A DNA stretch of 64,000 nt, taken from NCBI GenBank assembly GCA_020631855.1, contig JACKGU010000001.1, positions 231,601 through 295,600 on the forward strand, written 5' to 3'. This document shows, piece by piece, positions 8,576 through 27,397 of this stretch (position 1 is its first letter; every line of letters begins with the position of its first letter). The DNA is from Candidatus Nomurabacteria bacterium. Its GTDB lineage: Bacteria; Patescibacteriota; WWE3; UBA101185; UBA10185. The position numbers and the translations under genes are program-made. Below the pieces are notes generated by a model. The model saw only the letters and a program-made list of their open reading frames with translations. It was not told the DNA's origin and made no database searches.

Positions 8576-10345
8576 ATGTCGAATACAATAACCAACAAAG
8601 GAATAGAAGACGTATTGTTTGAAAGAGGCCTTATTAATGACGATCAACTTTCGGCAATAAAGTTTGAACACGTTAACACAGGAAGAAGTACCTCCCAAAT
8701 AATAAAAGATAGGGCCTATGTAAGTACTCAGGACTTTCTAAAAGCCTTTGGAGAAGTCTACGGCATAGAATTTGTAGATTTATCCGAACTTAAGATAAAC
8801 CCTAATATTCTAGAAATTATTCCTGCAAGTTTACTAAAGAAATATCAGTGTGTGCCTTTTGAGCAAAATGGAGATGTGTTGTCTGTGGCTATGGTTGATC
8901 CGCTCGATTTACAGAACATTGAATTTATGGAAAGAAAATCCGGATTTAAAGTTAAACCGTACATTACTACCCCTGCTGATATAGATAAAGTTCTTGCCGA
9001 CACACAGGGAAAAGCAATTAGTGAAGAAATTAGTGCTGCGCTTGAGGAGTTAAGTCAGAATACTTTAAAGCTTAAGGGCGATTCCGGAGATTTGAATGCC
9101 GATGAAGCAACCATTAGCGATGCACCTATAGCAAGAATCGTAGGCATGATACTTGAAACAGCTGTAAAGATTGGCGCCTCAGATGTTCATATCGAGCCTA
9201 GAGAGACGGACACACGTTTGCGTTATAGAGTTGACGGTGTTTTACAGGAAAAACGAACTTTCCCAAGAGAAATGCACGACTCTATTATTGCTCGTATTAA
9301 AATCCTTGCCAACATGAAAATAGACGAAAAGAGAATTCCTTTGGACGGTAGGTTTAAGGTTGCTGTCGGTAACACAGGGACTGATCTAAGAGTTTCAACT
9401 CTCCCAACTGTATATGGCGAAAAGGTAGTTATCCGATTATTAAAAGAGGAAGGTGCGATTTTTACATTTAAAGATTTAGGTTTGCGCGGACTGTCTTTAC
9501 GAAGGCTCGAGGAAGCTTTGATTAAGCCTGTGGGTATGGTGTTGGTAACAGGTCCTACTGGTTCAGGTAAAACTGTTACATTGGCTTCAGCTCTTGCGAA
9601 GCTAAATTCAGTGCGTGTAAATATTGTGTCGATTGAAGATCCGGTTGAAATTAGAGTTCCCGGAGTATCTCATGTGCAAGTTAATCCTCAGGCTGGTTTG
9701 ACTTTTGCCACCGGGTTAAGAGCTTTTTTGCGCCAAGACCCTAACATAATAATGGTAGGAGAAATTAGAGATGGTGAAACTGCCGAACTGGCAATACATG
9801 CCGCTTTAACAGGCCACCTTGTTTTATCCACGTTACACACAAACTCCTCATCCGGAGCTTTACCAAGGCTTCTTGATATGGGAGTAGAAAGCTTTTTGCT
9901 TGCTTCTACTGTCAACGCAATTTTGGCCCAAAGATTGGTTAGGAAGATTTGTGAAAACTGTAAAGAAGAGTATGAGGCTCCTGCGGAGGTCGAAGAAGAT
10001 ATCAGAAAGATACTAGATGACATAAAAAGTTCAGATATTATTATGCATAAAGATCCAGATATAGCTAAAGCGATTCAGAGTGTAAAGTCAGATAAGATTA
10101 AGTTGTACAAAGGTAAGGGCTGTGATAAGTGCGGGCAGTCTGGTTACAAAGGACGAATAGGTATTTTTGAGGTTTTGGAAAATTCTACCAACATTGCGGC
10201 TCTAACTTTGGAGCATAAGCCCGAATCAATAATTCAAGAAGCTGCTGTGGCAGAGGGCATGCTCACTTTAATGAAAGACGGGTATTTAAGAGTAGTTGAG
10301 GGCATCACGACCCTTGAAGAAGTAATGAGGGTTTCGAAAGGATAG
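8576..10345 (+). CDS. pilB: Type IV pilus assembly ATPase PilB (GspE family) with N-terminal GSPII_E_N-like domain
   Basis: Walker A GPTGSGKT, secretion-ATPase motifs, and C-terminal Cys cluster CxxC...CxxC. 589 aa. Confidence 0.85.
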   Translation: MSNTITNKGIEDVLFERGLINDDQLSAIKFEHVNTGRSTSQIIKDRAYVSTQDFLKAFGEVYGIEFVDLSELKINPNILEIIPASLLKKYQCVPFEQNGDVLSVAMVDPLDLQNIEFMERKSGFKVKPYITTPADIDKVLADTQGKAISEEISAALEELSQNTLKLKGDSGDLNADEATISDAPIARIVGMILETAVKIGASDVHIEPRETDTRLRYRVDGVLQEKRTFPREMHDSIIARIKILANMKIDEKRIPLDGRFKVAVGNTGTDLRVSTLPTVYGEKVVIRLLKEEGAIFTFKDLGLRGLSLRRLEEALIKPVGMVLVTGPTGSGKTVTLASALAKLNSVRVNIVSIEDPVEIRVPGVSHVQVNPQAGLTFATGLRAFLRQDPNIIMVGEIRDGETAELAIHAALTGHLVLSTLHTNSSSGALPRLLDMGVESFLLASTVNAILAQRLVRKICENCKEEYEAPAEVEEDIRKILDDIKSSDIIMHKDPDIAKAIQSVKSDKIKLYKGKGCDKCGQSGYKGRIGIFEVLENSTNIAALTLEHKPESIIQEAAVAEGMLTLMKDGYLRVVEGITTLEEVMRVSKG

Positions 10346-10365
10346 CACATCGGTGCTTAAATAAA

Positions 10366-11439
10366 ATGGCAATAAACGCTTCACAGTTATTGGAAAAAGT
10401 AATAGAGGTTAACGCTTCGGATTTGCATTTGGTTGTCGGAATGCCCCCTTCCATAAGAGTTAATACAGTTCTATCTCGCCTTGATGATTACGGCATATTA
10501 AGTATTGAAGATATTCAATATTTTATTTCAAAAATACTTTCGCAAGATCAGCAAAATCTTTTTGATTTGAATAAAGAGCTAGATCTTTCAGTGGCTTTAA
10601 GCAACAAAGCTAGATTCAGAGTTAATGTTTTTTATCAAAAAGGATACCCTTCTGTAGCTTTAAGACTTATTCCCATGCTCGTTCCGAGCCTAGATTCCCT
10701 AAATTTACCGCCCATTATAAAAAATATAGGCGAATTAAAGCAGGGGTTAGTGTTAGTTGTCGGTCCTACAGGTAACGGCAAATCTACTACAATCGCTTCT
10801 ATGATAGATTACATCAATGAAACTCGTTCTGAGCACATTGTTACCGTTGAAGATCCTATTGAATACATTTTCACCAGCAAAAAATCTTTAATAGAGCAAA
10901 GAGAAATGTATTTAGATACTCATTCTTGGGAAGCGGCGCTAAAATCTGTTTTAAGACAAGACCCGAACGTTGTTTTTATTGGAGAGATGCGGGATAAAGA
11001 AACAATGGAGTCTGTTTTGAATATTGCTGAGACTGGTCATTTAGTTTTTGCAACTTTACATACAAACTCAGCTGCGCAAAGCTTGGATAGAGTTATTAGC
11101 TCGTTTCCCGAAACTCAGCAACTGCAGGTAAGGCTCCAACTATCTCAGGTCATCGAAGCGGTAATTTCTCAAAGGCTACTCCCCTCCCCTAATAAGGGCA
11201 CAGTTCCGGCCGTTGAGTTGTTGCTTGCCACTGATGCAGTTAGAAGTCTTATTAGAGAGGGCAAGGCTTATCAAATTGATAATGTTATAAGCACCGGTGC
11301 GACGTATGGAATGATGACTTTAGATGCAAGCTTGGCCTTGCTGGTTTCACAAAACTATGTAGATCTTGAAGAGGCCATGAAAAGGTCGCTAAATCCTGAA
11401 AATTTGAGAAGAATGTTAAAGATGGGAGGTTCTAAGTAA
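10366..11439 (+). CDS. pilT: Type IV pilus retraction ATPase PilT
   Basis: GPTGNGKSTT Walker A, PilT-family length (357 aa), ASDLHL N-terminal motif. Confidence 0.85.
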   Translation: MAINASQLLEKVIEVNASDLHLVVGMPPSIRVNTVLSRLDDYGILSIEDIQYFISKILSQDQQNLFDLNKELDLSVALSNKARFRVNVFYQKGYPSVALRLIPMLVPSLDSLNLPPIIKNIGELKQGLVLVVGPTGNGKSTTIASMIDYINETRSEHIVTVEDPIEYIFTSKKSLIEQREMYLDTHSWEAALKSVLRQDPNVVFIGEMRDKETMESVLNIAETGHLVFATLHTNSAAQSLDRVISSFPETQQLQVRLQLSQVIEAVISQRLLPSPNKGTVPAVELLLATDAVRSLIREGKAYQIDNVISTGATYGMMTLDASLALLVSQNYVDLEEAMKRSLNPENLRRMLKMGGSK

Positions 11440-12642
11440 ATGGCTCTTTACGAATATACGGGTGTAGACAACCTTGGGACAAGAAGATCCGGGAAAGTAG
11501 ACGCAAGATCTGTTGATACGGCTATTGCTCTGTTAAAAAACCAAAATATTCATGTTTTAAATATTGCCGAGAGCAAAGGAACTCTAATTAGCAATATCGG
11601 AGATCTACGAGGAGTTCCGTTTTCAGAGGTAGTTTCTTTTACAAGGCAGATGTCCACAATGATCGGGGCCGGTCTTCCAATCGCAAAAACTTTGGATGTG
11701 CTATCGCAGCAAACTACAAACACCAGGTTTAGAGTTATTTTAGGAGATATTTTACGTGATGTGGAGGGAGGAACTTCTATAGCAGCTTCGTTTAGTAAGT
11801 ATCCGGATGTCTTTTCCAAAACATATCAATCTTTAGTGCGTGCGGGAGAAGCTTCGGGAAAGTTGGATCAAATATTATTGCGTCTGGCCGATACTATGGA
11901 ATCTCAGCGAGAATTAAGAGCGAAATTTAAAACCGCAATGATATATCCGGTTTTGGTAATGGTTGCCATGGTTGGTGTCTTTTTTATGCTAATGGTAGTT
12001 GTTGTTCCGAAACTAGCCGATATGTACGAAAGCCTAGATGCGGAATTGCCAATTATTACTCAACTTATGATTAATCTTTCGGATTTCATGGTCAACAATT
12101 TAATAGTCATAATTCTTGGAATGTTCGGCGGATTATATCTAATTAGATCTTTTTCAAAGACTCCCGGAGGAAGAGAATTTTTTATCAAACTAACCTATGT
12201 CCTGCCCGTTTTTGGCGCAGTTAACAAAAAGAGGGATCTAACAGAATTTTGTCGAACCCTCGGTTTGCTTCTTACTTCTGCTGTTCCTATTGTTGAGGCT
12301 CTCGAGATTGTACACGACGTAGTCTCTTATTATCACTATAAAAATGGGGCTAAGTCCGCGGCCCAGACAATTGAAAAAGGAGGAACTCTCTCGGGGTACT
12401 TAAAAAGCGATTCCAGCTTTCCCCCGATAATAGGAAATATGGCTGCTACAGGTGAGGAAACGGGTAAGCTCGATGAGGTTTTAGATAGACTTGCTGAATT
12501 TTTCAACAGAGAAACGCAGCATGCTGTAGAAGGTCTGTCTGCAGCTCTTGAGCCGTTGATTTTAATAATGTTGGGAGGTATGGTAGCTGTTCTAATCATT
12601 TCGATAATTACTCCTATTTACAAAATTACAACCTCTATCTAG
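11440..12642 (+). CDS. pilC: Type IV pilus platform protein PilC (GspF family)
   Basis: Two GspF repeats and three TM segments. It immediately follows pilT (the stop and start are adjacent). Confidence 0.85.
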   Translation: MALYEYTGVDNLGTRRSGKVDARSVDTAIALLKNQNIHVLNIAESKGTLISNIGDLRGVPFSEVVSFTRQMSTMIGAGLPIAKTLDVLSQQTTNTRFRVILGDILRDVEGGTSIAASFSKYPDVFSKTYQSLVRAGEASGKLDQILLRLADTMESQRELRAKFKTAMIYPVLVMVAMVGVFFMLMVVVVPKLADMYESLDAELPIITQLMINLSDFMVNNLIVIILGMFGGLYLIRSFSKTPGGREFFIKLTYVLPVFGAVNKKRDLTEFCRTLGLLLTSAVPIVEALEIVHDVVSYYHYKNGAKSAAQTIEKGGTLSGYLKSDSSFPPIIGNMAATGEETGKLDEVLDRLAEFFNRETQHAVEGLSAALEPLILIMLGGMVAVLIISIITPIYKITTSI

Positions 12643-12713
12643 GTTATTTGAGGATGTTTTTGTAGGGCAGTTTAGCTTTGTAATTAAATAGAAAATTGAA
12701 AGGGGGTGAAGAA

Positions 12714-13232
12714 ATGACAAAACTAAACAAAAGAAACGAAAAAGGTTTTACATTAGTTGAACTTTTAATCGTTATAGCAATTATTGGTGTACTTGCAGGT
12801 GCAATATTAATAGTTATTAACCCTGCACAGTTATTGGCTAAGTCCAGAGATTCACAAAGACTACAGGATTTAGACTCTCTAAATAAGGCAATAACATTAG
12901 CTATTGCAGAGCAAGAGATAACAATAACTACCACCACAGGTAACTCCGGAACAGGAACTAGGTCTGTAACAGGAGGAGGATGGGTCGGCTTTACACTTTT
13001 CACAGGTAAGACCGCCGGTTTAGGAAAGTATATTCCAACACTTCCTGTTGATCCTACAAACACAGGAAACTACGTGTATTCATACGCGGCAGATGCAACT
13101 TCCGGATCTTATGAATTGAACGCTGTTTTAGAGTCAACAGATAACCAGGCAAAAATGGGAACTGACGGAGGCTCCAGCGCAACTAAGTGGGAAGTAGGTA
13201 CGAACTTGGAACTCATTGATCCGACCCCGTAG
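12714..13232 (+). CDS. pilA: Type IV major pilin (prepilin)
   Basis: MTKLNKRNEKG|FTLVELLIVIAIIGVLA is a class III signal peptide with Gly-1/Phe+1 and Glu+5. A strong SD (AAGGGGG) sits 7 nt upstream of ATG 12714. The track start 12696 is a TTG. Confidence 0.85.
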   Translation: MTKLNKRNEKGFTLVELLIVIAIIGVLAGAILIVINPAQLLAKSRDSQRLQDLDSLNKAITLAIAEQEITITTTTGNSGTGTRSVTGGGWVGFTLFTGKTAGLGKYIPTLPVDPTNTGNYVYSYAADATSGSYELNAVLESTDNQAKMGTDGGSSATKWEVGTNLELIDPTP

Positions 13233-13351
13233 TAATTGTGTGCGCTTCGTGATCGCGCATACTTTTTATGGTCTTTAACTGAGTTAACTAAGTTAAATAT
13301 TTTCTTTAGACTTATGTCTATGTCTGAGGAAAAGGTTAAGTATGCATCTGA

Positions 13352-13378
13352 GGTGCGGAGCCCAAAGGGCTCCGCACC
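13352..13378 (+). terminator. Perfect 12-bp GC-rich hairpin (GGTGCGGAGCCC-AAA-GGGCTCCGCACC) directly after the major pilin gene. It is followed by A8, not T. Possible U-tract-less terminator or mRNA stabiliser.
   Basis: Palindrome read directly from the sequence. Its position after a highly expressed pilin gene is typical for partial terminators. Confidence 0.4.
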
Positions 13379-13504
13379 ATCAAAAAAAATACTGCAATCC
13401 CCTCCTCTCTTTACGGCAAGTATTCTGTAAAACTCTTCACCTTTAAAGAATTTTTGTTATACTAATTTAAGTTAATATTTATTTAAACTGCCTAGCGTAA
13501 TGAA

Positions 13505-14428
13505 TTGGAGAAAATTATGGATTATATAACAGTTTTACTTTATGCAATGCTCTTTATATCAGGAGCTTTTTTGGGATCTTTTATTAATGTAGTGGCCGAT
13601 CGTGCCAGCAAAGGTCAGAGCTTTTTATTTGGCCGCTCTAAGTGCGAGACCTGTAACAAGGTTTTGTCGCCAAGAGATTTGATTCCGGTGCTGTCCTATT
13701 TACTAGCAAAAGGAAAATGCAGGCACTGTAAAGAGAAACTATCTTTGTGGTATCCGATATCCGAAATTGTTACCGGAGCTCTTTTTGCAGGTTTGGCTTA
13801 TTATCTGAATCTTTTTGTTAATGTTTCATACGCTTATGTTTGGGTGTTTTACGTATATTTTGCAATAGTCGGCATGTCCTACATTGCCTTGTTTTTAGCA
13901 GATATCAAATATATGCTTTTGCCGACAAAAATAGTTGTTCCAACAATAGCTTTTGTATTGCTGTTTTTAGCCGGTAATGTGGGCTTTACAATTATATCCT
14001 CATATAAAGCTTTGCAGGCAGATGATTTCGGTAAGTATTTAATAGAGTCGGGGTACTGGCAGACACAGATTTTGCTCATGCTAAGGTCTGTAGCCTATTC
14101 AGTAGGCAGCGCGGCGGCAATTGCTTTATTCTTTTGGATTTTAACCAAAATTAAGCAGGGTCAAGCTATGGGTAAGGGGGATATAAAACTGGCTTTTCTT
14201 ATTGGTCTGGTAAACGGATTTCCTTTTAATGTTCTCGCAATTTTCCTAGGATTCTTAATGGGCGCACTTTACAGCGTAGGTTTATTGGCATTAAAAAAGA
14301 AAACCTTACAAAGCACAATTCCTTTTGGACCATTTCTTATCGTAGGCAGTGTAGTGTCCATCGTTTACGGAGCACAATTACTAAATTGGTTCTTTTCTCT
14401 ATCTAACTTAGTTCCCGCTGCAATGTAG
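13505..14428 (+). CDS. pilD: Prepilin peptidase / N-methyltransferase PilD (A24 family)
   Basis: N-terminal CxxC...CxxC zinc motif (CETCNK...CRHCKE), multiple TM segments, GKGDIKLAF catalytic-Asp region. Confidence 0.85.
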   Translation: MEKIMDYITVLLYAMLFISGAFLGSFINVVADRASKGQSFLFGRSKCETCNKVLSPRDLIPVLSYLLAKGKCRHCKEKLSLWYPISEIVTGALFAGLAYYLNLFVNVSYAYVWVFYVYFAIVGMSYIALFLADIKYMLLPTKIVVPTIAFVLLFLAGNVGFTIISSYKALQADDFGKYLIESGYWQTQILLMLRSVAYSVGSAAAIALFFWILTKIKQGQAMGKGDIKLAFLIGLVNGFPFNVLAIFLGFLMGALYSVGLLALKKKTLQSTIPFGPFLIVGSVVSIVYGAQLLNWFFSLSNLVPAAM

Positions 14429-14498: not shown

Positions 14499-14604
14499 AC
14501 CCTTTCGCCCATCCCCTTCTCTACGTTACTCTCATTCTTTGAAATTTTCTTTTCAAGACAACTGCTTTGTTGACTACCATCTGTCTTTTGTATAACATTT
14601 GTAT

Positions 14605-15171
14605 ATGCGACCCATACTGTCTACTGTAAAAAATCGTTTAGCCACATTTTCGTCTGCAAAAAAGACCACAAAAATTCTTTTAATACTTCTAGCGGGCACA
14701 TTTTTAATATTTGGATTTTTATTATTAAGTTCCATGGTTTGCTCTAAAAATAGCTCCTTATTTTGCTCCCGGCTTGCAGTATTATCAAATAATTCGGCTG
14801 ACCAAAAAACAGGGCAAGAACCGAACAACAGTATCTTTTCAAGCCCGGGAATCATTGAAACAGAAACGGGTATTTGGGATGGGCCTAAGTTTATTAGTAG
14901 CGGGGTGACGGGCTCTGAAAGTATTATATATAATGGAAATCTGGCGGCAGCCGATCTATCGAAACCTTCCATGACGCTGACAAAGAATAATGTTTCTACA
15001 GAAATAATTATTGATACAAACACCTTGAATCTTTATTACGCACCACATTCGGACTCGGCAAATCATGAAAACTACCCTATTTCTTCCCTCGAAGATCTCT
15101 TCTTAAAATTGAAAGACGGTGATTTTGTATCATATTTTCCTGGAAAGTTTATAATTGTTCTGTACTATTAA
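14605..15171 (+). CDS. Hypothetical membrane-anchored protein (one N-terminal TM segment)
   Basis: ORF with hydrophobic segment ILLILLAGTFLIFGFLLLSSMV. The first ATG is at 14605 (the track start 14599 is a TTG). Confidence 0.45.
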   Translation: MRPILSTVKNRLATFSSAKKTTKILLILLAGTFLIFGFLLLSSMVCSKNSSLFCSRLAVLSNNSADQKTGQEPNNSIFSSPGIIETETGIWDGPKFISSGVTGSESIIYNGNLAAADLSKPSMTLTKNNVSTEIIIDTNTLNLYYAPHSDSANHENYPISSLEDLFLKLKDGDFVSYFPGKFIIVLYY

Positions 15172-15190: not shown

Positions 15191-18100
15191 ATGTACTTAA
15201 TTAAAAACATATTTTTACGATTAAAAATAAAAAGCTTTATTACAGTTGCAAATCCTTTAGCAGCCGGTGCTTTATTTTTAGCAACACTAATTTTTAGTGC
15301 TTCGAGCTTTAGTATTTTTGCACAGGCATGCGCTCCTGATAGTGGGGAACATCACACCTATGATGAATACTTTGTCAACCCGAGGTGTGGTCTTTGGGAT
15401 TTTCCTTGTATAGGCAGTCAATGCGTCGTTAATGAAGGCTACGGTAATCAATGCAACGCCGGTATAGCCAACAATTGTTTGGCGAAAACCAATCAACTGT
15501 CTGAGGGCGAATGTACTGCCATTGGTTATGCTTTTCCTTGTTACTATACCAATATTTGGCCACAACCGCCGTGCTCCACATGTGGGAGCACCGCGGCTGC
15601 AGCGAACCCTCTTTGTGGATCAGATGAATATACCCCATCTGTGTGCACTGTTGCCCCCGATGCTGCCTGCCCTACTAGCACCGTCCCAATACCTGATACA
15701 GACACGCCGGTTACCATTGAAGTTAGAGGTGTTAAGAATGTTCCACGTGACGAGGGCCATGTCTATGGGTTGATGTGGTTTAATAGCGAGAATTCTAGTA
15801 ATGCAGTACGTGTTGACCTTGAAAGGCAAAATGATGCTCTTGGAAATTATACTGGAATTTATAGGAAAACTTTTACACCTTGTGCTACTTACGGCAAGTG
15901 CTATTCTGGGACCGCCAATGAGATGTTGTGGTTCGATGTCTGGATGTCTAATGATAACATAGGTTCGGACACATTTTATTGCGATGACGCAAACTTCTGG
16001 ACCACCCCTCCTACAGCGTCTGAGGATCCTCCATACGCAAGCTTAGCTATTGAGAATCTAACAAGGTCACTTTATTATTCTACGGCTGATGCCGTTTTCA
16101 TAAATGACAATGAAAGAGTTAGAGTTATCGGACAAGGTTTTTCTAATCCAAGTTCTCCTGACATAAATCAAATGAATTTAAGATCGTGCAGTTCTTCTCA
16201 AACTTGCCTCGATGCGAACTCGTCGACAACTGTTGCAACTAGTTCTACCGGTATAGTAGAGACCGAGCTCTCATTCAGTGCCGGAGCGGTTATTAGATAT
16301 TTGGTTAACGCTAGGAATACTACTGCGGCAGGAGCTAATCAGTGGTGCGTTGGATATACTGATCCGGGCTCGTTCGTAAAGTGCGTAAGAAATAATCTAC
16401 CCAACCCTTCCTATAAAGATCTTATAACTTTAAGAATTAATAACTCTCCGCACGCATCGCTTTCAGCTACAGATACAGATACTGGAACTAACTACACAAA
16501 TTCTAGTTTTACAATTTCTCAAGGTACAACACTAAGCTTTACGGCTAACGCTAGCGATACCTATGCAGGCGGAAATCCGGGTATTGTAACCGGAATTTAT
16601 CTAAAAAAATGCAATGACGCCAATAATTGCTCCGGTCTGACCCAAGTCTCTGAGGTTGCAAGTTGCACTAGCGACTCGGGAGTCTCAACTTGTTCTACAC
16701 AGCCTTCGCAATACATAACCTTTAATACTCCCGGAACTTACAAATTTTTAGTAAATGCTGCAGATAATGCTGACCCGAAGGCCTGGTGCTACAGTTACCC
16801 AAATTATAACTATTCGGCCCTTGATGCATATAAGCCTTGTAAAAGAGGCTCAGACACTTTGCCGAATGTGTTAACAATCACCGTGACTGCCGTTAATCAA
16901 GCACCTACAGGTTCCATCGAAACTATAAACTGTTCCTTAGGAGGAAGAGTCTGTGATACTGATGGGGATCGTAATATTATCGTAGTCCCAGGTAACATAA
17001 TTTCTTTTCAGGCTGTTGGTCAGGATGATGGTGGAATCAACTACACAAGAATTGCTTATTGCGAGACTGCCAATTGTGCAAGCCCTACAACGCTGACTAG
17101 CGCTTCTGGGGCTGTCGCATTCTACAATCGCACTTTCTTTCCGGCAGATATAGGGAAGAGCTACTACTTCTTTGTAACGGCAGATGACAATGGGTCTCCC
17201 ACACTTAGTTGTTCAGGAAATCCTTCAGCCTCAACTTATTGCGATAGGCCTTCTAACACAATAGACAAATACACTGTTACTGTGAGCGCAGCTCCAAACG
17301 CATTGCCTGAAGGAACTATTCAATTAGGTACTTCGGCACCCGGTACGATCCAGACTCTAAATCTTGGAGATTCAGGTACTATCGTAGCTAATGTAACTGA
17401 CAGCGATGGCTACATTAACTCTAGCCAAATCATTTACTGCCCTAGCGGCTTTAATAATTGCAGCCCAGCTGACGGTAGTGGTCTGATACTTTCAACTTGC
17501 GGCGTGAACGTTTCACAATGTTCCATTGGATACACTTTTAATACTGTTGGGCCTGCCTATTTTGTTGTCAGAGCTACCGATGATGACTCCGGTGTGTGTT
17601 CGGGGCAGTCTGCCGCCGCAGCTTCCAGATGCGATAGGTCCCTTCCTCTCGACGAAGATAGGTTGACAGTAAATGTCGTTAACAATACCGGTACCACCGA
17701 AAGCTTAACGGGTATTACCTATAACGTTAGTGATGTGGCGGCATGTAGTAATATTACGACCTCGCCAAGGCTCACTTCGGGTGCTGTACAGGAGAGTCTT
17801 TCGGTCACCTATATTAACCACGCAGGTACTTCATATAACGGGAACTGGACAGATGCCAACGGAAACTTTGAAATCAGCAATATACCTATTCCGGAAAACG
17901 GAGATTTGTGTGCGACCGGTAGTTTTACCGACAGTGTCGATTCAAGGTACAGGTACGACTTAGTTTGTTACTCAGATGGAACAACCGTGCAGACACTTAA
18001 CACAAGCTCGACCTGTGCCAGCAATATTACACTCCCAGGCTCTGGAAGCAACAATTATTTCGGTTATGTGAAAGTAGACACTTACCAAGAAGCTTGGTAT

Positions 18101-20108: not shown

Positions 20109-20543
20109 ATGAAAAACATTAAAAATAATTCAAAAGGTTTTACACTTATTGAGCTCTTGATAGTCATCGTTATTATTGGTATCTTGGCAGGTATTGTGCT
20201 CACGGTTTTAAATCCAGCAAGACAACAACAGCGAGCAAGAGAAACAGTTTTGAGAGCTAATACAGAAAAAGTGTGTCTCGCACTTCATTCGTGTGCGGTA
20301 ACAAGCTCCTCAGCTTTAAACTGTGATGATTGGACCGATATAGGTGCTATAAATCCGACCGGTACGCCTACAGGCTCAACTTATCCAATAAGCCCTAGCC
20401 CTGCGACAGCCGCTGGTGACACAATAACAATTACAGGCACTCTAGGTTCCTGTGTATTTACTTGTAATTACAACTTTACTAACTCAACGGCTGGTCAATT
20501 AGCCCTTGGCACGGGCGCTACTTGCCTCATTGGAGTTCAGTAG
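20109..20543 (+). CDS. Type IV pilin/pseudopilin (prepilin N-terminus KG|FTLIELLIVIVIIGILAG)
   Basis: Class III signal peptide. Strong RBS GGAGGGAGG. Confidence 0.8.
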   Translation: MKNIKNNSKGFTLIELLIVIVIIGILAGIVLTVLNPARQQQRARETVLRANTEKVCLALHSCAVTSSSALNCDDWTDIGAINPTGTPTGSTYPISPSPATAAGDTITITGTLGSCVFTCNYNFTNSTAGQLALGTGATCLIGVQ

Positions 20544-20559: not shown

Positions 20560-20592
20560 ATGCCCCTTCTCCAGAAGGGGCATTTTCTTTTT
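20560..20592 (+). terminator. Rho-independent terminator (ATGCCCCTT-CTCCAG-AAGGGGCAT followed by TTTCTTTTT)
   Basis: 9-bp stem plus T-rich tail, 17 nt after the pilin stop codon. Confidence 0.6.
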
Positions 20593-20665: not shown

Positions 20666-21205
20666 ATGTATAAAATAAAAAAAATTTCACAATCAAAAAA
20701 TAAAGGCTTTACGTTAATAGAGTTGCTCATTGTAGTTTCTGTATTGGGCATATTGGGAGGAGTTTTAACCACAGTTATAAACCCTAAAGTACAAAGAGCT
20801 AAAGCTCAGGATTCTGTTTATGCAACAAATATTCAAAAGCTTGCAGAGGGCATTGAGGCATATTACATTACCGGAAATGGCGTAGCGTATCCGGCTGAGG
20901 ACCCTTCGGGATCTTTAAGTAACGTAATAGCAGACCCGAATAATAACTTATCAAAATACATCGCAACATGGCCGACGGATGCTGCTTATGAATATAGAGT
21001 TTCCAGTGATTCCACAAACGCTTGCTTAAGCGTGCCTATGGCATCAGATCCCGATGTTCGCATAAAGTATGTTTTTAAGTCTTCGACCTCTGGAGCTTGT
21101 TCTGGAAGAGTTGTTAGAGATTGTACGTACAGTTGTTATGAGGGTTCAAGTTTCAATACCAACCTTGATGGTTGTAATTCTTTGACCGGAAATGCCTGTA
21201 ATTAA
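20666..21205 (+). CDS. Type IV pilin/pseudopilin (NKG|FTLIELLIVVSVLGILGG)
   Basis: Class III signal peptide. Confidence 0.8.
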   Translation: MYKIKKISQSKNKGFTLIELLIVVSVLGILGGVLTTVINPKVQRAKAQDSVYATNIQKLAEGIEAYYITGNGVAYPAEDPSGSLSNVIADPNNNLSKYIATWPTDAAYEYRVSSDSTNACLSVPMASDPDVRIKYVFKSSTSGACSGRVVRDCTYSCYEGSSFNTNLDGCNSLTGNACN

Positions 21206-21225: not shown

Positions 21226-21723
21226 ATGTATAACAAAAGAAACAAAAATTTAAATCCCGGTTCAGGATTTACATTAATAGAGATTCTGATAGTAGTCGTG
21301 ATAATTACGGTCATTAGCGGAGCAATTTTATCTTTAATAAACTCCGAAGGCTTAAGAGGCAAATCTCGTGATGCTCAGAGAGTTGCTGATATTAAAAAAA
21401 CTCAAAGTGCTTTGGAACTATATTTTGCTGACAACAGGCAGTACCCTGATACATCTTCAGATAAATCTGAGCTGGCGGATATAAGCAGTTTTCTGAGCAG
21501 CTACATGAGTGTAACTCCTACGGACCCCTTAAATACTGGGCAAGTTGACAACCTGTGTGGCAACAGCGCGGTCTATAAATATGTCTATCAATCTGATGGT
21601 TCAGAGTATTATTTAGGAGTTAATATGGAGGATAGTAGGTCAGCCGAGCCTTCCCCTTGTACGGACTTTAGCCTTTTTTGTAACTCTGCCGAAGCAACCT
21701 GTTATGCGGTTCGTAATCCTTAA
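21226..21723 (+). CDS. GspG/PulG-like pseudopilin
   Basis: GSG|FTLIEILIVVVII...RDAQRVADIKKTQSALELYFADNRQYP matches the GspG core motif. Confidence 0.8.
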   Translation: MYNKRNKNLNPGSGFTLIEILIVVVIITVISGAILSLINSEGLRGKSRDAQRVADIKKTQSALELYFADNRQYPDTSSDKSELADISSFLSSYMSVTPTDPLNTGQVDNLCGNSAVYKYVYQSDGSEYYLGVNMEDSRSAEPSPCTDFSLFCNSAEATCYAVRNP

Positions 21724-21725
21724 AG

Positions 21726-22208
21726 ATGCAAACTAGAAGTTCATCCGGCTTAACTTTAATTGAATTAACTATTACTCTTGGCATTATTGTTATTCTAGCT
21801 TCTGTTTTGCTATTGGTAATGGAAATACCCGAACTTGAGCAAAAAGCAAGAGATAATAAGAGACTTAGTGACATTGCTACTATAGAGCGGATAATAAACG
21901 AGTATGCAAATAACGCTAAAAGCTTTCCGGGCATTGCGAATACAACTTACGCAAGCAATGTAATACCTGATGAAGAAGAAGGCCAGGATATCTTGGTGTC
22001 GGGGTGGATATACGCCGATTTCACGCTATACTCCCCTACTCTACCCATTGATCCTAAAAACACAGATAACCACGTTTATTCTTATAGACATAATGGTAAG
22101 GCTTACGAAATAAACGCGTCTTTAGAATACTTTGACAACTTAATGCAAGAAGACAACGGAGACGACCCCGCTCTATATGAGGTGGGTACAAATTTGAGTA
22201 TTTTGTGA
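21726..22208 (+). CDS. Pilin-like protein with atypical leader (SSG|LTLIELTITLGIIVIL)
   Basis: Prepilin-like N-terminus with Leu at +1. Confidence 0.65.
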   Translation: MQTRSSSGLTLIELTITLGIIVILASVLLLVMEIPELEQKARDNKRLSDIATIERIINEYANNAKSFPGIANTTYASNVIPDEEEGQDILVSGWIYADFTLYSPTLPIDPKNTDNHVYSYRHNGKAYEINASLEYFDNLMQEDNGDDPALYEVGTNLSIL

Positions 22209-22238
22209 GATTTATTAAAAGTCTGTATACTTAAATAA

Positions 22239-22769
22239 ATGAAAAGATATACTGCTCAATCAGGCTTTACGCTTATAGAAATGATGATGGTTATTGCCAT
22301 TATGGCAATACTTTCTGGGTTTCTACTTCCCGGTTTGGGGAAATATTTAGACTCTCAATCTCTGTTTCAAGCTCAAGACCAAGTTAAAGGAGATTTACGC
22401 TCTATTCAAACCAGAGCTCTCACCGGAGCCGGTTTTAATGGCACGTATAAGTATTGGGGTGTAATGTTTGTTAACGACCAAAATAAATATGAATATTTTT
22501 TATCGGCTTCAAACAATGACACTACTTGCACTAATGCGGATTTTGACACCCAAGGTACCAGTCAGAGACTACCGGGAAACATGAAAATAGTAAAAACCGA
22601 TTCCGGGGCAGCATCTAATTGTTACTATTTTGCATTTGATAGCGGAAACGCAAATTTTGCCTCTGGGGCTGGTAATATATACATTGGTAACGGGACAAGT
22701 TGCGTCAAAATTACTATAAATTCTGCTGGATTTATTACAGCAGATAGATCTATTGTTGCTTGTAATTAA
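22239..22769 (+). CDS. Pseudopilin (GspH/FimT-like; QSG|FTLIEMMMVIAIMAIL)
   Basis: Class III signal peptide. Confidence 0.75.
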   Translation: MKRYTAQSGFTLIEMMMVIAIMAILSGFLLPGLGKYLDSQSLFQAQDQVKGDLRSIQTRALTGAGFNGTYKYWGVMFVNDQNKYEYFLSASNNDTTCTNADFDTQGTSQRLPGNMKIVKTDSGAASNCYYFAFDSGNANFASGAGNIYIGNGTSCVKITINSAGFITADRSIVACN

Positions 22770-22819
22770 GTTTTGCATCTTAGTATTGCAGTTGAATGCC
22801 GGTATTTAAGGCTACTTAT

Positions 22820-23386
22820 ATGCTATTAAAAGTTAAAAAATTTGTTCAAAATATATATTGGAGGCAAAATCGCCATTTCACAAATTCTCCGCAAGCCGGA
22901 CTGGGGCTTATTGAGACTGTTGTTGCTATGGGAATGTCAGTTTTGGTTATAACCACCCTAGTGTCCTTGTCGGTTTTTACCTTGCGTTCTTCGGTTCGCA
23001 GCAATATGTTTTTACGAGCTTCCAAATTAGCAAACAAACAAATGGAGCTGGTTAGAGCATATAGAGATCAGTCTGCTCTATCCTGGGAACAATTTTTAGT
23101 TACATTAGATGATTGTGACGGTGCAGGACAATTTTGCTTTATGGATGACAATGTTGTTGTTCAGGGTGACAAGTATCGAGACGGCACAGCCCTTAATTTA
23201 GTGACTGTGTATTTTAATATAATTGATCCGGCCAACGATCATCCAAACGATAGCCCTCCAGATGTTGATCCGGAAGATCCCGTTATTAGAGTTTCTGTTA
23301 TAGCTTCTTGGAGCGATATTGCGGGGGGCTCTGCCGATAAAAGTGTTTATGTATATACCGATTTATCTAATTGGCAGAATAAATAA
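22820..23386 (+). CDS. Minor pilin-like protein (AG|LGLIETVVAMGMSVLVITTL)
   Basis: Prepilin-like hydrophobic N-terminus with Glu+5. The start was chosen at an internal Met, so the 5' end is uncertain. Confidence 0.55.
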   Translation: MLLKVKKFVQNIYWRQNRHFTNSPQAGLGLIETVVAMGMSVLVITTLVSLSVFTLRSSVRSNMFLRASKLANKQMELVRAYRDQSALSWEQFLVTLDDCDGAGQFCFMDDNVVVQGDKYRDGTALNLVTVYFNIIDPANDHPNDSPPDVDPEDPVIRVSVIASWSDIAGGSADKSVYVYTDLSNWQNK

Positions 23387-23986
23387 ATGATTTTTGCGAA
23401 TACTAAATATTTACATAGAGTCAAGCCGGTCTGTAAAAGAAAGGATCGGGACGAACAGAAAGGATTTACTTTGCTCGAGTTACTCATTGTCATTGCTCTG
23501 TTGACAATTACTGTTGGGGTCACGGGTGACATAATTTTATCTTTGGTAAGAAGCTACAGTAAAACAAGGGTAACAAATGAGGTTGAACAAACAGGAAATC
23601 TGGCAATGTCTAAGATTGAAAAAGAGTTTCGCGCTGCCCTCTCAGTTTCCTCCCCTGCGCTAGGGGATACTGGAGATGAGCTAAGTTTTATTAGGGTAAT
23701 AGATGGAGTAGAACACACAATTACCTATACAGTAGAAGTTACCGGCGGGCTACTTAGGAGAGAAGACATAAACGGGACAAATATTTCCACTGCTGCAATA
23801 ATTGATGGGGAGGAATCGGCAATTAAAAACCCGGATACCGCTTTTAGCCTAGTCCAGGAAAATCCTTATGTTGTAAAAATAAATTTTGAGCTTAGACAGG
23901 GAGACTCAACACTTCCTGAGACAAGTCCTTTCGCGTCGAAAATTGATCTAGAAACAACTGTAGTAGCCAGAGGATCTTATAGATAG
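23387..23986 (+). CDS. Pseudopilin (GspJ/PilW-like; QKG|FTLLELLIVIALLTI)
   Basis: Class III signal peptide after a 26-aa leader. Confidence 0.7.
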   Translation: MIFANTKYLHRVKPVCKRKDRDEQKGFTLLELLIVIALLTITVGVTGDIILSLVRSYSKTRVTNEVEQTGNLAMSKIEKEFRAALSVSSPALGDTGDELSFIRVIDGVEHTITYTVEVTGGLLRREDINGTNISTAAIIDGEESAIKNPDTAFSLVQENPYVVKINFELRQGDSTLPETSPFASKIDLETTVVARGSYR

Positions 23987-23997
23987 GTAGACTATTT

Positions 23998-24873
23998 ATG
24001 TTTATTTTATTAAGTAAGTTTTGTTCCGGAAGGGTTAAAAATAAATTAAATACCTTCGCAGACGACCATCCCTATTCAGAAAGCGGCCAGGTCTTGGTAA
24101 TAATGGTTTTTGTTATGGTCATTGCTCTTGCTCTGGGCGTATCGATGTCAAACAAGTTCTTATCCGGGACTAGAAATATTACAAACGCTACCCTTGGCTT
24201 GCGGGCACAGGGAGTTGCAGAAGCCGGAATAGAGAACATTTTATTAAAAACAAATGACGAGCTTTACGACTATATTCAATACAACAGCTGCGGGGACAGC
24301 TGTATTGTCTCTTGGACAAACGCCGACGGACTAGTTGAAACAGCTACAATAACGCTAAGCACTCTAGGTAGTTCTTCTGATGCTTATATTTTTCAAATAT
24401 CTCAGAACGAAGTAGAGGAGATAAATTTAAACGGTTACCCCGAGGATACTTCGCTGACTCTTTGCTGGGATGATGATTTTTCTGAGTACACTAGTGTCTA
24501 TGCTGAACTGCTGTCCGGCACTGTTGGTAGTTATACTCTTACACCCCTTGCTTATAACTCCATAAATTATGGCGGAAACAGCAATGGGTTTGACTCTGCC
24601 TCGAGCCAGTTAGGGTATGATAGCTGTTTTGATGTAAATTCAGGCTCCGATCCTTTATCATTAAGAATTCGTATTTTTGGTTCAGATGCAACCATCGCAA
24701 TAATACCCTCTTCTTCTACAGACCTTCCTGCCCAGGGAGTGCTAATTGAATCGGTCGGTGAGGTAGCAGGAACTTATAAGAAAGTTGCAGTAATAAGAAA
24801 AGACGCTTTCATGGGCCCGGAATTTAGCTATGTGCTTTTTTCAACTTCTGAAAACAGCCCGTTGTCTAATTGA
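23998..24873 (+). CDS. Second PilX-N-like minor pilus protein
   Basis: GQVLVIMVFVMVIALALGVSMS N-terminal segment, similar to the 18937-19884 protein. Confidence 0.55.
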   Translation: MFILLSKFCSGRVKNKLNTFADDHPYSESGQVLVIMVFVMVIALALGVSMSNKFLSGTRNITNATLGLRAQGVAEAGIENILLKTNDELYDYIQYNSCGDSCIVSWTNADGLVETATITLSTLGSSSDAYIFQISQNEVEEINLNGYPEDTSLTLCWDDDFSEYTSVYAELLSGTVGSYTLTPLAYNSINYGGNSNGFDSASSQLGYDSCFDVNSGSDPLSLRIRIFGSDATIAIIPSSSTDLPAQGVLIESVGEVAGTYKKVAVIRKDAFMGPEFSYVLFSTSENSPLSN

Positions 24874-24916
24874 TTTAGGAGTAGAATATTTTTTAAATAT
24901 TCTGTAGACTTATATT

Positions 24917-25969
24917 ATGCCCATTATAGGACTTGATCTGGGCCGCCATCAATTTAGGGCGGTAGAATTAGAACAACAAAAAGGTTTTTATATTCTTAAA
25001 AACTACGGTAACTATGAAGGCAGGATGCTCGATTTGGATTTTCGTTCTCCTGACGCTGTCGCAAACTATACCAACGCACTCAAAGAGTTCATTCGAGAGA
25101 GAGATTTTTCAACATCAGGAGTTATCGTAGCATTGCCTGAGCAAGAGGTCTTTATACGGGTCATTAGTACTCCCAAGCTTTCACAAAAAGAGTTAAATAA
25201 TTTTATAAAAATGAATGCTGAGGAATACATTCCTATCCCGATGTCTGAGGTAACTTTTGACGCTCAAATAATAGACTCTAACGAAGTTGTGGATAAAGAA
25301 GATTCCGAAACCGGTAAAACAATGAGCGCCTTGTTAGTGGCTTCAAAAAACGATATCCTAAAAAAATACGTCGAGCTTATAAAATCCGCAGGATTCGTCC
25401 CCAAAGGCATAGAACCAGAAACCTTGTCGATAGAGAGAGTATTAGGGGATACCTTGGATCGTCCAAGCGCGTGCATTATTGTGAATATTGGAGTTTTTTC
25501 TACTCAAATAATAGTTAGTTATAGAGGTTTTGTTCGCTTCACTCGAACCGTGTCGGTAGGCGGAAGCGACCTGACTAAAGCTGTTCAGAAAGCTCTGAAT
25601 TTAGAATTCAATCAGGCAGAAGAATATAAAAAAGCTTACGGTTTAGACGAGAGCCAGGTTGACGGCAAGGTTTACAATGCTATTAAGCCCGTATTTGACA
25701 ATATTCTACTTGAAATAAACAGATCTAAAATGTACTACACAACGCACAATCCTTCTGTTATCATTAACAGAGTAATACTTTCCGGAGGAACTGCCCTTAT
25801 GCCGGGTACACTGCTTTATATTGCAAATAAACTTGATGTTGAAGCCGAGCTTTCCAATCCCTGGAGAACTATAAAAATTTCCGAAAAATTACAAAAAGAT
25901 CGCGATAACCTAATTAAACAAGGGCCAATGTATTCAACAGCGGTTGGACTAGCCCTAAAGGAGGTGTAA
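24917..25969 (+). CDS. pilM: Type IV pilus assembly protein PilM (actin-like)
   Basis: IIGLDLG N-terminal phosphate-1 motif; 350 aa. Confidence 0.8.
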   Translation: MPIIGLDLGRHQFRAVELEQQKGFYILKNYGNYEGRMLDLDFRSPDAVANYTNALKEFIRERDFSTSGVIVALPEQEVFIRVISTPKLSQKELNNFIKMNAEEYIPIPMSEVTFDAQIIDSNEVVDKEDSETGKTMSALLVASKNDILKKYVELIKSAGFVPKGIEPETLSIERVLGDTLDRPSACIIVNIGVFSTQIIVSYRGFVRFTRTVSVGGSDLTKAVQKALNLEFNQAEEYKKAYGLDESQVDGKVYNAIKPVFDNILLEINRSKMYYTTHNPSVIINRVILSGGTALMPGTLLYIANKLDVEAELSNPWRTIKISEKLQKDRDNLIKQGPMYSTAVGLALKEV

Positions 25970-25974
25970 CTGCC

Positions 25975-26565
25975 ATGTCACAAAGTATAAATCTAATTCC
26001 ACAAGAAGAGGTAGTCTCTCAGCAAAAACAGAGTGTTGTTAAGCTGAGCTCTGTATTTTCTGTTGTATTACTTGTTTTAGTGGCTATATACGCTGTGTAT
26101 ATGGTTTACACCGTAAATCAAATTAAAAGTGCAACCAGACAGCATGAACAAAATATCGCTAATCACAGAAAAGACATAAATTCCCTAAAAGAAATAGAGA
26201 TTCTAGCCCGTTCGCTTGACGGCAGATATAAGTTGCTATCGGAGGTTTTGGATAAGAGGCAGAATTATTCTATTTTGCTTGAGGAAATAACCAAGAGAAT
26301 GCCCGTAACTACAAGAATTGATTCTTGGAACATTTCAGCACCCGGGACAGTTATGATTTCAGGAGTAGCAGACGATTACCTTGCTATTGCAAAGCTTTTG
26401 GATAATATGTCTCAGAAAGATTTTGTTGATGCAGGAGAAGGTATGGAGTCTTTGTTGACTGACATTACGTTAAACTCGGTTCAATTAGATAATCAGGACA
26501 CCGATGTTAGTTTTGCTCTCACTGTAAAATACGATTCTAAATTAATTTCGGGAGTGAGAAAATAA
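25975..26565 (+). CDS. pilN: PilN-like bitopic protein
   Basis: N-terminal INLIPQEE (INLLP motif), a single TM segment, then a coiled-coil. Confidence 0.65.
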   Translation: MSQSINLIPQEEVVSQQKQSVVKLSSVFSVVLLVLVAIYAVYMVYTVNQIKSATRQHEQNIANHRKDINSLKEIEILARSLDGRYKLLSEVLDKRQNYSILLEEITKRMPVTTRIDSWNISAPGTVMISGVADDYLAIAKLLDNMSQKDFVDAGEGMESLLTDITLNSVQLDNQDTDVSFALTVKYDSKLISGVRK

Positions 26566-26566
26566 T

Positions 26567-27397
26567 ATGAAAAAAATTAACATAGATACCTTAGCGATAA
26601 AACAAATGGTGGCAAACTTTTTAGTGCCTCTGATTTCTTTAGGCCTTGTAACCGCAATAGGATTTTTAGTACTCTATCCTACTATCTCGAATAGACCTAT
26701 GTACGAAGAAAAGCTAGAGGCTTCAAGGGCATTAGATGAGCAGTTATTAACGAAGCTCGAGAAATTAAATTATCTTGTGGACTATAAGAGTGCCGTAGAT
26801 GAGAATAACTCTCTACTTTCGGATGTTTTAGCTCAAAAGCCTTTAGTTCCCGAACTTCTGACCCAGCTTGATATTATTGCAAAAGAAGCGGGCTTGGGCG
26901 TTGAAAAATTAAGTTACTCTTTTGGAGCCGGCAAAGATACCGCCGAAGGCACCTTAACAGATATAAATGTCAATATGGGGATTATTGGAACTTACGATCA
27001 ACTTGTTGCTTTTTTTAGAGCTTTAGAAAAAGCCGGACGGCTGGTTAACGTAGATAACTACAGGTACACCCTTACCGAAGATAATGCTTTGTCTATAAAT
27101 CTTACTTTTTCTTCCCCTTACGTTGATGTGAAAACCGATGCAGTTACTGATGATCCTATTGCTTTTGACATTTCTGACACTAAGTTTGTGTCGTTAATGT
27201 CATCTCTTAAAGAATTTAAGGTTTACAGAATATCTGTAGATGACTACATAGAAGTTCCTGCAACACCAGAAATTCCGACACAGCAGGGTGAGCAGCCTTT
27301 AGATGCTCCGGCAGAAGTCGGAGTACTTCAACAGCCCGGTGGTGCCGAAGCTCCGGCTCAAGTACCTGTCGTTCCGACCGAAGAGCCCCTTAACTAG
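26567..27397 (+). CDS. pilO: PilO-like bitopic protein
   Basis: Single TM segment, coiled-coil, Pro/Glu-rich C-terminal tail. Position after pilM/pilN. Confidence 0.6.
   Translation: MKKINIDTLAIKQMVANFLVPLISLGLVTAIGFLVLYPTISNRPMYEEKLEASRALDEQLLTKLEKLNYLVDYKSAVDENNSLLSDVLAQKPLVPELLTQLDIIAKEAGLGVEKLSYSFGAGKDTAEGTLTDINVNMGIIGTYDQLVAFFRALEKAGRLVNVDNYRYTLTEDNALSINLTFSSPYVDVKTDAVTDDPIAFDISDTKFVSLMSSLKEFKVYRISVDDYIEVPATPEIPTQQGEQPLDAPAEVGVLQQPGGAEAPAQVPVVPTEEPLN

Follow-up and report, generated by a model that had tools for sequence, protein, structure and literature searches.

A probable secretin-less type IVa-like pilus locus with a lineage-specific candidate adhesin module in a WWE3-like member of the Candidate Phyla Radiation

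The genes described here lie between positions 8576 and 27397 of a 64-kb stretch of DNA (the window) from a metagenome-assembled genome (MAG), and we interpret them as the locus of a type IV pilus (T4P) of the Candidate Phyla Radiation (CPR). All are on the plus strand, in the order pilB, pilT, pilC, a first pilin gene, pilD, a gene for a membrane protein, a gene for a large secreted protein, a PilX/PilK-like gene (X1), four further prepilin genes (pil10 to pil13), three minor pilin genes (pil14 to pil16), a second PilX/PilK-like gene (X2), and pilM, pilN and pilO. This inventory had been proposed in a sequence-only reading of the window, and the listing and translation of the open reading frames (ORFs), together with Pfam and NCBIfam profiles, bear out its genes, their strand and their order; the outer limits are exact, the ATG of pilB being at 8576 and the stop codon of pilO ending at 27397. 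The count of eight prepilin and two PilX-like genes is also correct, because a six-frame motif scan finds exactly eight N-terminal class-III signals in the window and because X1 and X2 are paralogous by BLASTP. The gene calls thus stand, but some of the start codons do not, and were moved for the first pilin (12714, an ATG that follows AAGGAGG, and not 12696), PilD (13517), the membrane protein (14605), the large protein (15191, giving 1249 residues) and X1 (18937/18940). The same order, from pilB, pilT and pilC through the pilin, pilD, the transmembrane (TM) protein, the large protein, X1, the pilins and X2 to pilMNO, is found in two related loci, L089 and L091, with pilins that are collinear one to one; the core order pilB-pilT-pilC-pilin-pilD also occurs in the Saccharibacteria, Paceibacterota, Parcubacteria and Moraniibacteriota loci that we examined.

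The extension ATPase PilB (8576-10345, 589 residues) has an N-terminal MshEN domain (E = 2e-20), a T2SSE domain (E = 4.3e-126), the Walker A motif GPTGSGKT and a tetra-Cys motif. Its best NCBIfam model is that of PilB (TIGR02538; 570 bits, cut-off 675), followed by GspE (532 bits), ComGA (248 bits) and TadA (49 bits). The retraction ATPase PilT (10366-11439, 357 residues), whose presence the sequence-only reading had reported, exceeds the cut-off of the PilT/PilU model TIGR01420 (434.7 bits against 319.1) and has the motifs GPTGNGKS and AVRSLIRE, the latter of the AIRNLIRE type. PilC, the platform protein (11440-12642, 400 residues), matches Pfam T2SSF over two stretches (E = 1.3e-63) and scores 347 bits with the GspF model, 327 bits with the PilC model and 131 bits with ComGB. 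The prepilin peptidase PilD (13517-14428, 303 residues) matches A24_N_bact (E = 2.7e-28) and Peptidase_A24 (E = 4.8e-9) and shows the motifs CxxC...CxxC and GKGD. At the far end of the locus are PilM (24917-25969, 350 residues; PilM_2, E = 1e-44; TIGR01175, 182.9 bits, cut-off 133), PilN (25975-26565, 196 residues, with an N-terminal INLIP motif; PF05137, 28.3 bits, cut-off 22.8) and PilO (26567-27397, 276 residues; PF04350 over residues 53-178, 37.6 bits, cut-off 22). Beyond this match (residues ~180-276), PilO has a conserved extension of ~60 residues (…AVTDDPI.FD…YRISVDD…) that leads into an acidic tail rich in Pro; the L089 and L091 orthologues have these two elements as well, and no family was matched by either. 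The extension may be a wall-spanning element that substitutes for the PilP/PilQ contacts.

Profile searches therefore place the two ATPases in the PilB and PilT families and not with Tad. A Tad/Flp pilus was rejected on the gap between the TadA and PilB scores (49 and 570 bits) and for want of matches to Flp or TadE/F families, and a Com pseudopilus on the scores of ComGA (cut-off 300 bits) and ComGB (cut-off 240 bits), both well under those of PilB and PilC, and on the presence of PilT. Over the 64 kb, the same kind of search found no PilQ secretin, PilP, TsaP or PilF, as the sequence-only reading had said, and no ComEC, ComEA or DprA. In monoderm bacteria such as the Clostridia and Streptococcus sanguinis, type IVa pili (T4aP) are made with PilB, PilT, PilC, PilD, PilM/N/O and several pilins, and with neither a secretin nor PilP. 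The crossing of a single membrane and the wall, proposed at the outset, is thus supported by T4aP-type profiles, by the lack of a secretin gene in the window and by the CPR host (see below), and we estimate at close to nine in ten the probability that a CPR (WWE3-like) host has here a single, uninterrupted type IVa-like pilus locus, whose fibre crosses the cytoplasmic membrane and the wall without an outer-membrane secretin.

Certain results weigh against this assignment. PilB, PilC and all of the pilins score below the NCBIfam equivalog cut-offs, which is to be expected in a divergent phylum, and for the extension ATPase the GspE model comes close to equalling that of PilB (532 and 570 bits). 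In addition, operon boundaries could be drawn only from hairpins and intergenic gaps, because promoter-like sites are no commoner than chance (49 observed, 48.6 expected); terminator-like sites are likewise at chance frequency. The GspE score, and that of GspF (347 bits), which are near those of the PilB and PilC models, would also fit a type II secretion system (T2SS), in which a short pseudopilus expels folded proteins and no long surface pilus is made, as would the weak likeness of several pilins to GspG or GspH and the GspH-I-J-K order of the minor pilins. A T2SS, however, should not bring with it a PilT above its curated cut-off and a PilM/N/O set, which are hallmarks of T4aP, and GspC, GspD, GspL and GspM are absent from the window. 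Moreover, the T2SS is a diderm system, while CPR bacteria are described in the literature as lacking an outer membrane (10.1101/335083), and pili have been seen on cultivated CPR bacteria and assigned genetically to loci of this sort (PMC12206443). PilT and PilM/N/O, in particular, argue against the reassignment to a T2SS that the sequence-only reading had considered; we rejected it, giving it only a very slight chance of being right.

The class-III signal G/[FL][TG]L[VIL]E is found near the N-terminus of the eight prepilins and of no other ORF in the window; the only other match to the expression falls at residue 64 of an unrelated ORF (50495-51394) and does not represent a leader. N_methyl matches seven of the eight prepilins (pil13 weakly and below the cut-off), and pil15 was recognised by the motif alone. 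The pilin in the PilA position (12714-13232, 172 residues, leader MTKLNKRNEKG/FTLVE; N_methyl, E = 4e-10) is preceded by a strong Shine-Dalgarno sequence and has orthologues at the equivalent position in L009, L089 and L091. The second group of pilins begins with pil10 (20109-20543, 144 residues, KG/FTLIE; E = 9.5e-11), which has a GGAGGGAGG Shine-Dalgarno sequence, and continues with pil11 (20666-21205, 179 residues, KG/FTLIE; E = 1.8e-8), with collinear orthologues in L089, L091 and L093, pil12 (21226-21723, 165 residues, SG/FTLIE; E = 2.4e-6) and pil13 (21726-22208, 160 residues, SG/LTLIE; E = 8e-4), the orthologues of which are matched at 1e-38 to 1e-42. That pil12 is a prepilin, as had been claimed, holds; its designation as GspG-like is weak, since both T2SSG (18 bits, cut-off 21) and TIGR01710 (39 bits, cut-off 88.85) fall below threshold. 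pil13 is a paralogue of the PilA-position pilin; in tblastn the pilA region is ~33% identical to it. The orthologues of pil10 to pil16 are collinear, one to one, in L089, L091 and L093, with a few duplications in L089.

Two hairpins only, both 3' of pilin genes, stand out on folding. The first (13352-13378; a perfect, GC-rich stem of 12 bp, -30.8 kcal/mol, z = -8.4) lies in the 284-bp spacer between the PilA-position pilin and pilD (13233-13516) and is followed by a run of A and not of U, so that it is not a canonical terminator; a 64-residue ORF that spans it (13236-13430) is probably not a gene. The second, on the plus strand after pil10 (20560-20583; a 10-bp stem with 6 GC pairs, -23.3 kcal/mol, z = -5.45), is terminator-like, with a U-rich tail. 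Since both the PilA-position pilin and pil10 combine a strong ribosome-binding site with a downstream hairpin, the former is a candidate major pilin and the latter a second candidate, and either or both may be abundant.

The minor pilins come after pil13. pil14 (22239-22769, 176 residues; N_methyl, E = 3e-8), in the GspH/FimU position, has GspH as its top NCBIfam model, with a weak match (35 bits) confined to the N-terminus, and lies 5' of the I-J-K-like genes in an order that is conserved. pil15 (22796-23386, 196 residues, AG/LGLIETVVA) is PilV/GspI-like and matches no Pfam family; all of its orthologues start with G[IL][GA]L[VI]E[TV][VI]A, which we take to be a PilV/GspI-type N-terminus. pil16 (23387-23986, 199 residues, KG/FTLLE; N_methyl, E = 2.4e-7), in the PilW/GspJ position, has orthologues at 1e-34 to 1e-41 and weak matches to ComGF and to PRK10557 (PpdC-like). 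With X2 (23998-24873, 291 residues), a paralogue of X1 that belongs to no family and occupies the GspK position, the order pil14-pil15-pil16-X2 appears to mirror GspH-I-J-K and FimU-PilV-PilW-PilX, an assignment made from position and N-terminal motifs only; it is kept in L089, L091, L100, L104, L106 and L109. I-J-K synteny is almost invariant across T4P and T2SS (Ellison et al., PNAS 2026, PMC13533445). The likeness to the GspH-GspI-GspJ-GspK tip of the T2SS extends to the last member, which lacks Glu5; what sets the two systems apart is the absence here of the remaining T2SS components and the lack of a GspK-like alpha-domain in the model of X1. A new observation is that in the related loci X2 always closes the GspH-I-J-K-ordered minor-pilin set, its orthologues always lying between the last minor pilin and PilM. 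Unlike X2, X1 is not placed after GspI/GspJ-like genes; it follows the large protein.

X1 (18937-19884, 315 residues, without a Pfam match) and X2 are related over their full length (BLASTP, 1e-19) and have 16 homologues among 5.8 billion clusters, none of them with a Pfam domain. The matches fall into two orthologous groups, those of X2 at 1e-56 to 1e-68 and those of X1 at 1e-34 to 1e-43, with cross-group matches at 1e-13 to 1e-31. Throughout the alignment an invariant GQ stands ahead of the hydrophobic helix and an A-A-E-G-x-E motif is kept; Glu5 is missing from both window proteins, position 5 being hydrophobic (F or I in the pair). PilX_N (PF14341) is matched weakly at E <= 1 by 5 of 17 family members, the best at 0.0012, and by neither X1 nor X2 themselves. 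The AlphaFold2 model of X1, from a 17-sequence alignment, reached a predicted local distance difference test score (pLDDT) of 76 and a predicted template modelling score (pTM) of 0.69; it shows an N-terminal helix of 54 residues (20-73) and a head of two short helices and a beta-sandwich of 13 strands, so that its overall shape is the "lollipop" of a pilin, the head being large. The model has no GspK-like alpha-domain and no GspK-like fold, and Foldseek against the PDB returned generic beta-sandwiches, with neither GspK nor XcpX among them; the family profile likewise found nothing meaningful among PDB sequences. Bromodomain matches in the PDB profile searches with the X family and with the C-terminus of the large protein are spurious. 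In Nanosynbacter lyticus TM7x, PilX1 is described as having no PilD signal and carrying a beta-jelly-roll domain (PMC12206443), and the helix and beta-sandwich of X1 agree with this.

Upstream of X1 lie the other two genes of what is a three-gene, lineage-specific module. The first (14605-15171) codes for a bitopic membrane protein of 188 residues with a single TM segment and no Pfam or NCBIfam match. Public annotations of 14574-15171 conflict, giving the 188-residue plus-strand protein, a fragment of 66 residues or minus-strand ORFs of 132 or 149 residues; we favour the first because single-TM proteins, of 173-205 residues, are found at the equivalent position in L009, L089, L091 and L092. 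Their identity is only 17-27%, and since they show no significant mutual similarity they count as positional analogues only. The second gene (15191-18940) codes for the large protein, of 1249 residues with 44 Cys, a candidate pilus-tip adhesin that belongs to no Pfam or NCBIfam family. It begins with a Sec-type signal (…SIFAQA/C) and is rich in Ser, Thr and Asn. By eye, the signal peptide is followed by a Cys-rich region, about four immunoglobulin (Ig)-like repeats of ~130 residues, with boundaries resembling the "VN.AP" junctions of cadherin/Ig-type domains, and a weakly CarboxypepD_reg-like region; BLASTP self-comparison detected no internal repeats, and eight segments searched against Pfam at E <= 1 gave a weak CarboxypepD_reg match (E = 0.0094) and otherwise noise. 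The centre of the gene (16001-18000) has the highest G+C content of the window, 0.443 against ~0.39 elsewhere.

The large protein is nearly an orphan. Neither the whole protein nor its last 370 residues found a match in word-indexed homology searches, the representative of its cluster being an N-terminal fragment only, and an exhaustive HMMER scan of 1.84 billion representatives returned 7 matches. The N-terminal and central parts have diverged past BLAST recognition even with respect to the WWE3 relative. What is conserved is a C-terminal domain of ~200 residues (1046-1249), supported by a hidden Markov model (HMM) that matches the large proteins of related loci at 1e-13 to 1e-82, including two from outside its build set, those of L089 (1811 residues, 1e-31) and L091 (558 residues, 3e-39). 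The last ~14 residues, G....[DE][VI].[WFY], are conserved in all eight family members; in the AlphaFold2 monomer model, which is poor overall (see below), they are unstructured. Using hhalign, we found no relation between the C-terminal family and the X family.

The large gene and X1 overlap in the window: an ATGA, behind a GGGAGGAG sequence, holds the stop codon of the one and the start of the other. We surveyed this pairing, defined as an ORF with the C-terminal domain ending at or overlapping the start of an X1 orthologue, in 25 loci, made up of the window, 6 loci found through homologues (L009, L089, L091, L092, L093 and L094) and 18 metagenome loci found through the X family. It was present in 23 of them, with Cys-rich large proteins that vary in length from some 0.5 to 1.8 thousand residues: the window, all 6 of the homologue-found loci and 16 of the 18 from metagenomes. 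One of the exceptions is truncated at the end of its contig and in the other, L103, the large gene is 1.4 kb downstream of the X gene. In L106/L107 (2234-7002) two tandem large genes (~830-860 and 718 residues), each with the C-terminal domain, precede a single X1 orthologue, an arrangement that points to duplication and diversification of the candidate adhesin gene.

The survey bears on whether the large protein and the upstream membrane protein are ordinary cell-surface or wall proteins that merely sit within a pilus locus. The signal of the large protein is of the ordinary Sec type, and not that of a pilin, and the protein shows no homology to any pilus tip protein; the interval after pilD takes up unrelated insertions in relatives; and in L103 the large gene is apart from the X gene and downstream of it. 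A bystander, however, would hardly be expected to keep its pairing with X1 in 23 of 25 informative loci while its own sequence diverged past BLAST recognition, or to do so through junctions that overlap or nearly abut, as at the ATGA behind GGAGG in the window. Strong conservation is moreover limited to the C-terminal domain, the part that adjoins X1, and PilY1 shows a like pattern. Finally, the large protein has no recognisable anchor once its signal peptide is cleaved (neither a sortase motif nor a C-terminal TM segment), and so should need a partner to stay on the cell. We consider the bystander explanation rather unlikely, if a serious contender.

The insertions after pilD consist of a histidine kinase gene in L009 (14015-15157, minus strand) and in L091 (2526-6623), where a response regulator and a radical-SAM protein are encoded as well. 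Local regulation of the pilus is one possible function of these genes; alternatively, they may simply mark a hot spot of insertion.

Precedent for a large protein that works through a pilin of the PilK type comes from MshQ-MshP and PilC/PilY1-PilK, in which the gene of the large protein is a neighbour of that of the PilK homologue, and the last ~10 residues of the protein are predicted to serve as a donated beta-strand (PMC13533445). Here too, the gene of a large secreted protein (~1000-1200 residues) adjoins that of a Glu5-less PilK-family pilin, the N-terminal part is variable, the C-terminal part and the extreme C-terminal peptide are conserved, and so is the I-J-K order. In contrast to PilY1 and MshQ, the large protein has no PilY1 beta-propeller, no vWA domain and no sequence similarity to them, and its gene lies upstream of an extra PilK paralogue, X1, and not downstream of the I-J-K set. 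By this analogy, we tentatively propose, at somewhat less than even odds, that the large protein is a lineage-specific pilus-tip adhesin docked via X1. Possibly, and with about as much reservation, the large Cys-rich proteins as a group (from a 258-residue fragment to 1811 residues) constitute an undescribed family of T4P tip adhesins that is confined to a WWE3-like clade of the CPR and loaded onto the pilus via dedicated X1 partners, while X2 forms an adhesin-free tip.

Several results speak against the docked adhesin. The Pfam/NCBIfam and PDB profile searches disclosed no sequence or fold similarity of the large protein to PilY1/PilC, to MshQ or to any solved protein, and the PilY1 beta-propeller domain was matched neither by the whole protein nor by its segments. 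The AlphaFold2 model of the C-terminal domain, from a 5-sequence alignment, is poor overall and unreliable (pLDDT 49). In view of the unrelated insertions after pilD in L009 and L091, the linkage of the large protein to the machinery genes is looser than its linkage to X1. Lastly, X1 and X2 have in common a conserved C-terminal motif, FDF.[IL][YF], and X1 may therefore, as GspK does, provide the terminal strand itself, in cis, in which case no partner would be needed.

How the parts could work together is suggested by established T4P biology. PilD would cut the eight prepilins after the conserved Gly, and PilM, PilN and PilO, with PilC as the platform, would form the assembly complex in the membrane. 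A priming complex of pil14, pil15, pil16 and the Glu5-less X2, in GspH-I-J-K order, would start the fibre; PilB would polymerise the major pilin (the pilin at 12714, pil10 or both), PilT would depolymerise the fibre and so retract it, and the fibre would leave through the wall without a secretin. Translation of X1 would be coupled to that of the large protein through the overlap of their genes. The C-terminal domain and the extreme C-terminal peptide of the large protein could then dock onto X1, as PilC/PilY1 does onto PilK and MshQ onto MshP, and the fast-evolving N-terminal and central part could bind the target surface or host cell. There would thus be two alternative tips, X2 alone, or X1 with the adhesin. 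If so, one machine could build two kinds of pilus tip, and the fast-evolving body of the adhesin would set the specificity for host or surface.

T4P are regarded as the principal organ with which CPR bacteria locate and hold other cells, and perhaps feed on them. In cultivated Saccharibacteria T4P drive host association and twitching (PNAS 2022, PMC9894109). By analogy with these organisms, a role in attachment to host cells or surfaces, in twitching and possibly in DNA uptake is likely for the pilus described here; the episymbiont lifestyle and the DNA uptake raised in the sequence-only reading are suggested by relatives and not by this sequence. A pilus devoted primarily to competence, its fibre binding environmental DNA and retracting to a ComEC channel, and not serving adhesion or motility, seems to us unlikely. 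CPR bacteria, WWE3 included, do pair T4P with ComEC and DprA, and DNA uptake has been proposed for them (PMC3812714; 10.1101/335083; PMC7143001); PilT, whose driving of retraction DNA uptake needs, is present. The window, however, holds no comEA, comEC or dprA, the ComGA and ComGB models score far less than those of PilB (248 against 570 bits) and PilC/GspF (131 against 327-347 bits), and in TM7x the single deletable pilus is reported to be dispensable for competence (PMC12206443). A large Cys-rich protein with Ig-like repeats, moreover, looks more like an adhesin, and roles in competence and in adhesion are not mutually exclusive.

The reading of the locus as a secretin-less pilus is correct, yet it was already established for the CPR, and as such adds nothing conceptually new. 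In WWE3 and three other candidate phyla, Kantor et al. (2013) found T4P along with pilT, several pilins and ComEC (PMC3812714), Meheust et al. described co-localised PilB, PilT, PilC, PilD and PilM, with no PilQ, across the CPR and tied this to a non-Gram-negative envelope (bioRxiv 10.1101/335083), and an equivalent inference was drawn from a single-locus, secretin-less T4P in the complete Microgenomates genome Ch65 (PMC7143001). The present inventory is the same, and the lack of pilQ points to the same kind of envelope; what this locus adds to the Ch65 and CPR-wide reports is only the pairing of a conserved large secreted protein with a PilX-like gene, and PilN/PilO, none of which figure in them. 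In the TM7x study (ISME J 2025, PMC12206443), two distinct pili are described, with PilX-type proteins that lack a PilD signal and have beta-rich C-terminal domains. The T4P-1 of TM7x and the T4P of Saccharibacteria TM7i resemble the present system in having a CPR host, one locus with pilB, pilT, pilC, pilD, pilM/N/O and several pilins, and a PilX-type protein without a PilD signal and with a beta-rich C-terminal domain, and in that no secretin is described (PMC12206443; PMC9894109). By this indirect comparison, made with the published descriptions, they differ in that PilMNO is upstream there and at the far end here, and in having five pilins where there are eight, and two paralogous PilX-like genes, in the window. 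Among the Saccharibacteria loci examined, no counterpart of the large-protein/X1 module could be detected; similarity there is confined to small proteins, which match just the first ~80-100 residues of the X family, and the family HMM matches the same N-terminal portion of small proteins in other CPR T4P loci.

In S. sanguinis the pilins themselves bear the adhesive modules, as grafts. The candidate adhesin here differs in being a separate, Sec-secreted protein, and the phylum is another one. The locus is thus a clean and complete example of a T4P from the little-studied WWE3-like branch, and the conserved, lineage-specific large-protein/X1 candidate adhesin module is the only element that goes beyond published descriptions. 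In this lineage the pair is a concrete candidate for the end of the pilus that recognises the host, and its C-terminal docking on a PilK-family subunit, if true, would extend the proposed rule of beta-strand addition to the CPR.

The host is a CPR (Patescibacteria) bacterium, probably of the WWE3 lineage, as indicated by the names of the sources, by the nearest locus, which is that of a WWE3 MAG, and by the ribosomal genes. The sequence of the window recurs without a difference within the 629,590-bp contig JACKGV010000006.1 of the MAG GCA_020631795.1, and ENA, JGI and Logan assemblies contain the same strain (nucleotide identity 99.97-100% over stretches of 6.6-21 kb). Among 185,579 species-representative genomes, the closest locus, in the WWE3 MAG, has the same gene order and a PilT and a PilB that are 64% and 68% identical. 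The taxonomic labels conflict: the NCBI MAG is named "Candidatus Nomurabacteria bacterium", while proteins of another assembly that fall into the same 90%-identity clusters, and the closest species-representative genome, are labelled "candidate division WWE3". In the S10-spc-alpha ribosomal operon (~50500-64000, minus strand; L008) the gene for S5 is followed directly by that for L15, and the L30 gene is missing between them, which is a hallmark of the CPR.

The rest of the window encodes GyrA and GyrB, RelA/SpoT, PheST, a class A penicillin-binding protein, an aminoacyl-tRNA synthetase of the tRNA-synt_1b family, RecG, IF3, SecY and the ribosomal operon; tRNA and Rfam scans of the window found no tRNA and no Rfam family. 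A tandem duplication of a 117-bp unit, with 2.0 copies in perfect register that are 99% identical, lies at 7519-7754 in the spacer between gyrB (5415-7439, minus strand) and the gene for the delta' subunit of DNA polymerase III (7755-8483, minus strand), and overlaps an ORF of 89 residues that is probably spurious. Scattered among the housekeeping genes are five ORFs of 191-557 residues that belong to no family (31001-32674, minus; 35507-36343, plus; 36529-37104, plus; 41405-42376, minus; and 47526-48365, plus); none matches Pfam at E <= 0.1 or carries a pilin motif, inspection by eye showed no obvious signal peptide, and all are examples of the "dark matter" proteins of the CPR.

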